Positions 50,000-52,559 of a DNA stretch of 52,559 bases are shown here, piece by piece. This stretch comes from an uncultured Gammaproteobacteria bacterium (GTDB lineage: Bacteria > Pseudomonadota > Gammaproteobacteria > Arenicellales > JAANXG01): NCBI GenBank assembly GCA_947259955.1, contig CAMYOI010000004.1, positions 1 to 52,559 on the forward strand, in the 5' to 3' direction. The notes beneath the pieces were generated by a model that worked only from the letters and a program-made list of their open reading frames with translations, had not been told where the DNA came from and did no database searches. Each line of letters begins with the position of its first letter. The first letter of the stretch is position 1. The translations under genes were made by a program, and so were the position numbers.

Positions 50000-51808
50000 G
50001 TGGACCAAGAGAGCAAACAGTCTGAACTCAAGAAACTGATCCTCAAGGGCAAGGAACAAGGATTTCTGACTTATCGGGAGATCAATGATCACCTGCCGGA
50101 AGACATGCACGACACGGATCAGATCGAGGCGGTGGTCAACATGATCAACGACATGGGGATCCTGGTCTACGACAAACCGCCCGATCCGGACAGTCTGTTG
50201 CTCAAGGAAGAATCAACCCCCGATGAAGAAGACACCGATGCCGCCCTGACCACCGCCGTGGAGAGCGAGTTCGGCCGAACAACCGATCCGGTGCGCATGT
50301 ATATGCGGGAAATGGGTACGGTCGATCTGCTGACCAGAAAGGATGAGATCAAGCTCGCCAAGCGCATCGAAGACGGTATTCGCCAGTGCACCGAGGCGGT
50401 CGCCAGTTGCCCGGTCACCATCGAAGAAATCCTGCGCCTGGCCGAAATCATCGAAAACCAGGAAATGCGGCTCACCGACCTGGTGCTGGATTACATCGAC
50501 CCTAACGCCGTGGATGAACCTATCCCGACGCCGCAGCAAACCGGACCGTCTACAGACGCAAACAGCTCTGAGGACAGCGACGAGGAAATCGACACTGGTC
50601 CGGATTTCGATGAAGCCATATCCAGATTCAAGCGCATACGGAGAAACTACAACAGCATGATGCGCTCGATCGAGCGCAACGGCATCGGTGACGAAAAGGT
50701 CAAAAAGATCCAGAGCAAACTGGTCACAGAGGTCATGGAGATCAAACTCGCACCGAAGCAGGTGGATGCGCTGTGGGAGCGAATCAAGGACCTGGTCGAG
50801 CTGGTGCGAGCCCGTGAAAAAGCCGTCATGGAGATCTGCGTCGCACATGCACGCATGCCCAGGAAGACTTTCATCAAGGCTTTCCTCGGCAGGGAAACGG
50901 ACAAAGGCCTGTATCGCGCCCTGCTGCGCGCTGCCGGCGACAACAAGCCGGTCATCGAAGCGTACGCGGAAGAAATCAAGTCCCACCGCGAGAAACTGCA
51001 GGCGTTCGAGCAGCTGGCCGGCATCCCCATTCACGAACTTAAGGAAGTTAACCGCCGTATGTCCATCGGCGAGGCCAAGGCACGGCGTGCGAAAAAGGAA
51101 ATGGTGGAGGCCAACCTGCGCCTTGTCATCTCCATAGCGAAGAAGTACACCAATCGCGGACTCCAATTCCTCGATCTCATCCAGGAGGGCAACATCGGAT
51201 TGATGAAGGCGGTAGACAAGTTCGAATACCGGCGGGGCTACAAGTTTTCTACCTACGCGACGTGGTGGATCCGACAGGCCATCACACGCTCGATCGCGGA
51301 TCAGGCCCGGACCATCCGGATCCCGGTGCACATGATCGAAACCATCAACAAGCTCAACCGTGTATCCAGGCAGATCCTGCAGGAAAAGGGCCGCGAGGCC
51401 CTGCCCGAAGAACTGGCGGAACGCATGGACATGCCGGAGGAAAAGATCCGCAAGGTGCTGAAGATTGCCAAAGAACCAATCTCCATGGAGACCCCCATCG
51501 GAGACGACGAGGATTCGCATCTCGGGGATTTCATCGAGGACAAGAACGTCCAGGCCCCGATGGACGCAGCCACCGGCTCGGGGTTGACCTGGGCGACCCA
51601 GGACATTCTGAGCACGCTGACTCCCAGGGAAGCGAAAGTACTCCGGATGCGCTTCGGAATCGGCATGAATACCGATCACACGCTGGAGGAAGTCGGCAAA
51701 CAGTTCGACGTAACGCGCGAGCGCATTCGCCAGATCGAGGCCAAGGCACTTCGCAAACTGCGCCACCCCTCGCGCTCGGAACACCTGCGTAGCTTCCTGG
51801 AACAGTAA
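50000..51808 (+). CDS. rpoD: RNA polymerase sigma factor RpoD
   Basis: [54 protein letters not shown]. Confidence 0.98.
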
Positions 51809-51875: not shown

Positions 51876-51952
51876 GGGCCTGTAGCTCAGTTGGTTAGAG
51901 CAGTGGACTCATAATCCATTGGTCGTAGGTTCGAGCCCTACCAGGCCCACCA
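51876..51952 (+). tRNA. ileX: tRNA-Ile2 (anticodon CAT, lysidine-modified)
   Basis: Cloverleaf GGGCCTG...CAGGCCC-A-CCA, TAGCTCAGTTGG D-arm, CTCATAA loop, GGTTCGAG T-loop. Position after rpoD matches E. coli ileX. Confidence 0.9.
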
Positions 51953-52009
51953 GTAAAATCGATATTTTCAGCCCCGTCATCTCTCCTGCCACTCAATCAA
52001 TGGGCACTC

Positions 52010-52064
52010 GCGGCGGACCGCGAGCGTAGCGAGTGGTTTGTCCGACTGCATGCGTTTATTAGGC
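52010..52064 (-). mobile_element. Truncated/degenerate attC site
   Basis: Minus strand GCCTAAT-AAACGCATGCAGTCGGACAAACCACTCGCTACGCTCGCGGTCCGCCGC: inverse-core-like site, left arm and central hairpin. No distal GTTRRRY follows. Confidence 0.7.
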
Positions 52065-52499
52065 GTCAGGATTGATCCAACTTTTAATTTCTTCAATTCT
52101 CGGATCTCCTAGCCAAATCGCGTCAATGATAGAGGTTGTCGATTTCATCAGATCTGGGTCATAAATCACTTGTTGCCGCGTTAGTGCTTCATCACACAAA
52201 TCACTATTGGACATTTGTCTGTCAGCGCCATCGATCGCCATAAAGCCGCCGCCACCTGATTCGGCATTTAAGATCCAGGAAGATAGCTTTTTATCATTAC
52301 AATTTTCTTCACCCCAAGTCCCGATTAATAAATCGAAGTTGGGAGAATGTTCAGGTTTATTGCATGTCCATTGCACGAAATATGCGGCAACTCCTCTATC
52401 TGGCGCACGAACGTATCCCCAAACAGTGCGGGTCTCGTTACCACAGCATTCGCACGTTCCGCCACTTTCGCCATCTGTTTCAATCTGCAAGTTATCCAT
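52059..52499 (-). CDS. Hypothetical protein (CxCC motif), integron cassette gene
   Basis: 146 aa, visibly AT-richer than flanks; stop codon lies inside the inverse core site. Confidence 0.8.
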   Translation of the reverse strand: MDNLQIETDGESGGTCECCGNETRTVWGYVRAPDRGVAAYFVQWTCNKPEHSPNFDLLIGTWGEENCNDKKLSSWILNAESGGGGFMAIDGADRQMSNSDLCDEALTRQQVIYDPDLMKSTTSIIDAIWLGDPRIEEIKSWINPDA

Positions 52500-52505
52500 T
52501 CTGAC

Positions 52506-52559
52506 GCCTAACTATTGATGAACCCCGTATATGTTGAACAATCCTGGCGCTGTTTTGTC
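52506..52559 (-). mobile_element. Core recombination site GTTAGGC with putative attI
   Basis: Minus strand ...GTTCAACATATACGGGGTTCATCAATA-GTTAGGC, immediately before the cassette ORF. Confidence 0.55.

Follow-up and report, generated by a model that had tools for sequence, protein, structure and literature searches.

A probable frozen integron remnant with a single orfA-family cassette at an attI site beside a tRNA gene in an uncultured gammaproteobacterium

For the right-hand end of contig CAMYOI010000004.1 of an uncultured gammaproteobacterium, the question is whether a small gene lying head-on to a tRNA gene is a genuine integron cassette and, if so, how it came to lie there with no integrase gene in view. 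The window, i.e. the whole stretch of 52,559 nucleotides that was analysed, is the entire contig (C4) of a draft genome (G000), an assembly of 831 contigs totalling 6.08 Mb with 91% completeness and 7.5% contamination. The cassette feature takes up the last 550 bases of the contig, beyond rpoD and a CAT tRNA, and is best explained as a frozen single-cassette integron remnant, in which a genuine attI holds an orfA-family cassette. The features are as follows.

50000..51808, plus strand: rpoD (sigma-70, 602 aa, name read from the sequence), the host gene left of the insertion site
51876..51952, plus strand: tRNA with a CAT anticodon, Ile2 by exclusion, the island insertion site in relatives
51953..52009, unstranded: 57-bp spacer from the tRNA to the attC break, likely an island remnant
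52010..52064, minus strand: broken attC, with R'' GCCTAAT at 52064-52058 (AAC to AAT), a 5-bp spacer, L'' at 52052-52045, the centre, and the inner right arm to 52010
52499..52059, minus strand: cassette ORF of 146 aa, GC 0.449 against 0.57 for the window, homologue of orfA of R388 In3
52500..52511, minus strand: cassette 5' end (TTAGGC and a 6-base leader after the G|TT crossover), with 11-base complementarity to the 3' end
52512..52559, minus strand: attI as assigned below, with the crossover between 52512 and 52511, ending with the contig
52524-52518 and 52517-52513, in the attI: putative L box and its 5-bp spacer, by analogy

The 146-aa ORF is a genuine integron gene cassette. On the minus strand, GTTAGGC (52512-52506) is followed by six bases (52505-52500) and the ATG at 52499, and the TAA stop (52061-52059) lies inside GCCTAAT (52064-52058), so that the ORF is bounded by a GTTRRRY core and an RYYYAAC inverse core with one change (AAT); every coordinate and motif that the initial annotation gave for this arrangement was correct. 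The perfect 11-bp complementarity of the two cassette ends that had been described there was also confirmed (52511-52501 with 52069-52059), and in a genome-wide chance control only 2 of 9,292 ATG-started ORFs of at least 100 aa had such ends, the window ORF being one of the two. No promoter-like site was found on the cassette strand. The locus shows several traits of an integron gene cassette, namely a bounded promoterless ORF, attC homology, and a homologous cassette in another integron. No excision joint of the cassette was observed in the contigs of six public runs.

The homologous cassette is orfA of In3 on plasmid R388 (NC_028464), to which the window ORF is 50% identical over 141 aa and which sits between dfrB2 and qacE-delta1 in a class 1 integron; the plasmid search gave two records, of which R388 was the better. 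The R388 cassette has the same complementary ends as the window cassette (GTTAGGCGTCA and TGACGCCTAAC), and the end complementarity is therefore a family trait. In addition to the homologous protein and the cassette ends, the two share a stop codon that falls within or beside the inverse core and an unknown function, R388 orfA being listed as an orf of unknown function in the cited part of PMC3518468. They differ in that R388 orfA has a complete attC and holds the second position in an intact class 1 integron, whereas the window copy has a broken attC and holds the first position, at an attI that is not of class 1. The case against a cassette that had been put forward, that relatives might carry the ORF as an ordinary gene without these flanks, falls away with R388, where the homologue is a bona fide cassette with the same ends.

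The DNA upstream of the cassette is, as judged from its sequence relationships, an attI. The GTTAGGC there had rightly been read as a core at the cassette boundary, but it is not the end of a preceding attC; it belongs to an attI/attC junction, which the initial annotation did not see. The 47 upstream bases match a platform of about 170 bases with 14 matches in the draft genome including the window (window E 2.5e-6). On contig C682 the platform faces away from a truncated IntI fragment (231 bits) that breaks off near residue 188, and in genome G010 of the same family it is divergent to a full 323-aa IntI (TIGR02249, 469 bits, cut-off 265) that is 86% identical to the C682 fragment. In an alignment of 13 copies from the draft genome and eight others, the homology stops at the G|TT crossover, after which each copy continues with its own cassette start; the window cassette is therefore in first position. 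An attI is expected upstream of and divergent to intI, with homology ending at the crossover, and this is the arrangement of the copies on C682 and in G010, to which the window copy is joined by homology. No consensus promoter towards the cassette was found upstream of the attI in metagenome contig L029 or in L063, the corresponding region of the window copy lying off the contig, and no LexA-type box was found near the intI starts.

Adjacency of intI and attI is cut off at the end of the window, since the contig stops 47 bases upstream of the crossover, and no convincingly overlapping contig to extend it was found. In two relatives, the sister genome G004 and contig L029 (97% identical to the window), intI is absent from the place where it is expected, and judging from these two there is probably no intI beyond the contig edge either.

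The attC was described as lacking its right arm and distal core. L', the spacer and R' are indeed lost, while the inner right arm survives as GCCGC (52014-52010). A covariance model was built from 16 intact sites, eight of them from the draft genome and none from the window, and replaced two earlier scripts, a strict one that gave two sites and a loose one that gave mostly noise. The best match in the window was at 52064-51991 (23.7 bits, E 1.8e-4; next best 9.3 bits) and is the only significant one there; genome-wide it ranks 13th of 15 (E 0.02). Both a model match at the site and intact relatives of it, two of the checks that had been proposed, were obtained. The window site aligns with intact twins (G037, G104 and C304) over the inverse core and the centre as far as GCCGC at 52010, where the match ends, and intact twins in public runs resume where the window attC breaks. 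The bottom strand folds at -12.6 kcal/mol without a long hairpin, against -24.9 kcal/mol for an intact twin. With L' and R' absent and no long hairpin, this is not a complete foldable attC with paired R and L boxes. Because the natural intact attC of R388 orfA scores only 20.2 bits with the same model, below the 23.7 bits of the window, the breakage rests on the alignment and the fold and not on the score.

As to how the site broke, an intact twin still agrees with the window at 7 of the 18 bases beyond the break, so that the attC may have decayed in place. A new inverted repeat of 7 bp, between the attC centre and the bases at the break (window 52007-52023, minus strand), could stem from template switching. 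At the altered core base 52058, no different letter was observed in any public run examined, and L029 also keeps the altered base.

Taken together, the locus is probably a single cassette in first position at an attI, locked by an attC without its right half, and likely the last piece of an integron. In the mechanism proposed, an integron would have arrived on a genomic island at the tRNA and would later have been whittled by deletions. On established integron biology, IntI would have inserted a circular cassette by recombining its attC, as a folded bottom strand, into the attI at G|TT, and the promoterless ORF would thereby have been placed behind the platform promoter. A site without paired R and L boxes would no longer be recognised; excision would be impossible because recognition needs the paired boxes, and the broken attC is thus predicted to lock the cassette in place.

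The state of the locus in close relatives is consistent with this. In the sister genome G004 (rpoD DNA identity 97.7%), the same locus is present with window positions 51970-52463 deleted and 19 bases removed from the attI, so that it is reduced to a 36-base stump; no intI start lies in the 70 bases before the contig end there, and no IntI match was found in G004 at E 1e-30. The earlier description of the array as possibly immobilised is therefore borne out by the broken attC together with the further erosion in G004. Variable cassettes, which it had been suggested to look for at the rpoD-tRNA locus of related genomes, were not observed: no turnover was seen in any close relative examined, and the first cassette of the window recurs, whole or as a remnant, in G004, L029 and the public runs X1, X2, X3 and X5. 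Some 75 bases upstream of the crossover in L029 lies the 3' end of a group II intron. Such an intron, with an ORF for a reverse transcriptase (about 2 kb), was observed at the same platform position in L029:156-600 and G000:C444:3769-1759, the 5' junction being seen on C444 and the 3' junction in L029, i.e. in two different platform copies. Group II introns have been reported in integrons (PMC7923331, in the part cited); the literature examined has them at attC, whereas here they are upstream of the attI. A short REP-like repeat (L010:1-28), found in dozens of contigs of the draft genome, sits 70 bases upstream of the eroded G004 platform.

The reading that competes best is that the attI is a live satellite docking site, into which new cassettes could still be inserted, in front of the stuck one, by an integrase encoded just past the contig end or at some other place in the genome. 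The attI is intact in the window and in L029, an intact IntI is present on contig C143, the copies carry different first cassettes, and the last 40 aligned platform columns are the best conserved (mean identity 0.88 in eight copies of the draft genome, against 0.65-0.83 further upstream). However, the first cassette or its remnant is the same in the two relatives and four runs named above, the attI of G004 is partly deleted with no IntI match in that genome, the C143 integrase (381 bits), the only whole IntI in the draft genome, is just 50% identical to the cognate type, the cognate gene on C682 is truncated, and the crossover reads GCT instead of GTT in 3 of 13 copies. We consider a live site rather unlikely.

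The same question arises for the platform family as a whole. None of the 14 platform matches in the draft genome has a whole integrase: nine have at least 1 kb upstream with no intI protein match, one has the truncated gene, one has 464 bases without intI, and three are at contig ends. Downstream of 6 of the 13 platforms that reach the crossover, a model-positive attC was found in the right orientation. The median identity among 11 copies of the draft genome is 74%. Of 20 family genomes, 8 carry the platform, and those other than the draft genome have one to three copies. Mis-binning may have inflated the count: the contigs with the platform are short, and all of them lack the 14-base repeat motif that is common in the rest of the assembly. 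One copy, however, has a counterpart in G004 at 98%. It is doubtful that in this bacterial family the integron platform multiplied into stand-alone attI-promoter modules, kept without an integrase of their own and loaded in trans, and so made a genome-wide docking set out of one gene-capture locus, with the window cassette fixed later. If this were true, attI-headed satellites missed by current software could make up many of the CALINs and SALINs published so far. Relics are favoured over maintained satellites because of the fixed cassette content and the decaying crossovers. A literature search, with most subscription journals outside its coverage, returned no paper on genome-wide orphan attI families.

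Several other observations concern the orphan platforms. An intergenic repeat of 140-200 bases (G000:C147:2150-1930; 62 BLAST matches genome-wide) often abuts orphan platforms and follows the truncated intI on C682; no element ends were defined for it. Six orphan platforms from three genera (G000:C472, G005:C31, G008:C38, G012:C144 and C181, and G016:C135) have 30-100 more bases beyond the intI start that are unlike the G010 intI, and sequence comparison suggests a sub-lineage that may have spread after losing its integrase. A piece of the cognate intI, 116 bases long (G000:C443:5929-6044), starts roughly at the point where the orphan platforms end, and an attC lies 300 bases from it. Upstream of position 1922 on G000:C794, another reverse-transcriptase-like ORF directly precedes an orphan platform. 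Elsewhere in the draft genome (C218, C51, C342, C614, C689, C90 and C254), many clusters of three adjacent tyrosine recombinase genes were observed among 62 PF00589 matches, and these resemble recombinase-in-trio elements.

For the arrival of the cassette at this position, the tRNA itself is informative. There are three CAT tRNAs in the draft genome; the other two resemble initiator and elongator Met, and the one at 51876-51952 is putatively Ile2, by exclusion on the basis of identity features. Other members of the family have unrelated DNA after this tRNA. In the closed genome G006, a 16.5-kb island is inserted there, bounded by a 46-base duplicate of the 3' half of the tRNA; next to the tRNA, this island (L101, G006:C1:3850500-3870000) encodes a tyrosine integrase, its opposite end carries an intI (434 bits), and 14 attC matches run towards the tRNA. 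The island also codes for a PF12835 integrase-domain protein. The window has the same orientation, with the attI and one cassette remaining. The two loci are alike in the tRNA after rpoD, the direction of the array and the attC subfamily, and they differ in that G006 has an intact intI, an island integrase, a tRNA duplicate and the 14 attC matches, as well as a different type of IntI and attI (its IntI is only 52.5% identical to the cognate IntI of the platform, and its attI had no match to the platform model). No integrase was found between the tRNA and the cassette in the window, and no second copy of the tRNA 3' end in the draft genome or beside the other intI/attI loci searched; the far end of an island here would lie off the contig. 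The 57-bp spacer (51953-52009) had no match among 19 other family genomes and its source was not found; its first 17 bases are retained in G004, and it is also present in an independent public run. On balance, with G006 as the one genome showing such an island, it is somewhat more likely than not that the cassette arrived on a tRNA-targeted island. The chromosomal integron at the rpoD-tRNA locus that was proposed earlier is more aptly described as a remnant at a hotspot for insertions beside the tRNA, since relatives carry unrelated DNA there and no cassette turnover was seen.

Alternatively, rearrangement or repeat-mediated transfer could have copied or brought the attI and its cassette from another integron of the lineage to the tRNA, without any island. 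The many dispersed platform copies, most of which stop within about 45 bases of the intI start and several of which abut the abundant intergenic repeat, agree with such a transfer; the divergence of the copies, among which no shared element ends were found, and the head-on geometry at the tRNA, which matches the G006 island, argue against it and make it improbable.

Among the integrase-less cassettes described before, CALINs and SALINs are defined in PMC4889954 and 10.1101/2022.09.11.507474, where, in the parts cited, loss of intI is one proposed origin; PMC4889954 lists both intI loss and off-target insertion. The window is like them in having an attC without a nearby integrase gene, and unlike them in its one broken attC and retained attI. 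In a CALIN, two or more attC sites occur without intI, and the window has one attC match; a SALIN is a single cassette with no other att site nearby, and here an attI lies directly upstream. A cassette inserted off-target at an attG by an integrase acting in trans, a route that has been demonstrated experimentally (10.1101/2022.09.11.507474, in the part cited), agrees with a single cassette and no integrase in view, but the upstream DNA belongs to the intI-linked attI family and is not host DNA, so that this origin is very improbable. IntegronFinder, as described in the cited part of PMC4889954, searches attI only for classes 1-3 by exact match, and the window attI would therefore be invisible to it. 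On the Shewanella prophage M16-3, an attI heads an integrase-less CALIN (PMC9892861, in the part cited); there, a complete integron lies elsewhere in the element and the prophage has one extra attI, whereas here there are about a dozen diverged copies. In degenerate chromosomal integrons of Xanthomonas, a truncated intI is next to an attI and a short array (PMC3826837, in the part cited), with one remnant and ilvD as the usual site in the genus, whereas the window site is a tRNA and the platform is multi-copy.

The junction of tRNA and cassette is real and not an assembly error. A 385-base contig from the public run X1 spans the tRNA, the spacer, the broken attC and the ORF with seven differences, and the attC break is covered by a contig from X6 that has one inserted base. 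That the motifs arose by chance around an ordinary gene, or that the final 550 bases of a contig in this fragmented draft were mis-assembled, is of negligible probability given these two contigs, the chance control of 2 in 9,292, and a homologue in R388 that is itself a cassette.

The integrase-less cassette here probably arose by loss of intI, though there is no intI pseudogene at most copies, and the window locus is a further case of known integron decay. The locus itself is an ordinary decayed integron, while the scattered family of orphan attI sites is of wider interest. The loci form a series in the ending of an integron, from the full array in the G006 island through the attI with one locked cassette in the window to the 36-base stump in G004. 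A non-class-1 attI family is now defined by sequence, and the choice between intI loss and off-target insertion, raised in the cited part of PMC4889954, therefore becomes testable.

For the product of the cassette, 89 of 96 candidates were homologues, nearly all unnamed, and none was found in 399 other genomes of the class. Of the homologue loci, 1 of 12 in metagenome contigs is close, one in genome contigs is distant, and one is viral, the last with no attC model match near it; a cassette context is shown for two homologues only, those of L029 and R388. No Pfam match at E 1 and no NCBIfam match were obtained for the ORF, and an alignment of 87 family members gave no convincing Pfam family; no solved relative was found by sequence. 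The structure model (pLDDT 91) is a beta meander with C-terminal helices; Foldseek returned no match at E 0.001, and the maximum in a wide structural search was Z 5.8. Avidin, suggested by Atlas matches, was rejected, as the scores of 0.81 or less are at lead level. A preprint on phage defence encoded by cassettes names neither orfA nor gcuA nor R388 in its main text. The invariant residues of the family are Cys16, Cys19 and several Asp and Arg, and our guess is that the product may be a small metal-binding accessory protein.

Among strains, the ORF has 12 non-synonymous and 6 synonymous variants (pN/pS 0.53 on 18 sites), against 12 non-synonymous and 27 synonymous codons in rpoD between the draft genome and G004. 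These small numbers hint at possibly relaxed selection on the ORF; close strains inflate pN/pS. One variant hits Cys16, in a single contig. Since the ORF is still open in all strains examined and pN/pS is 0.53, it may still be useful.
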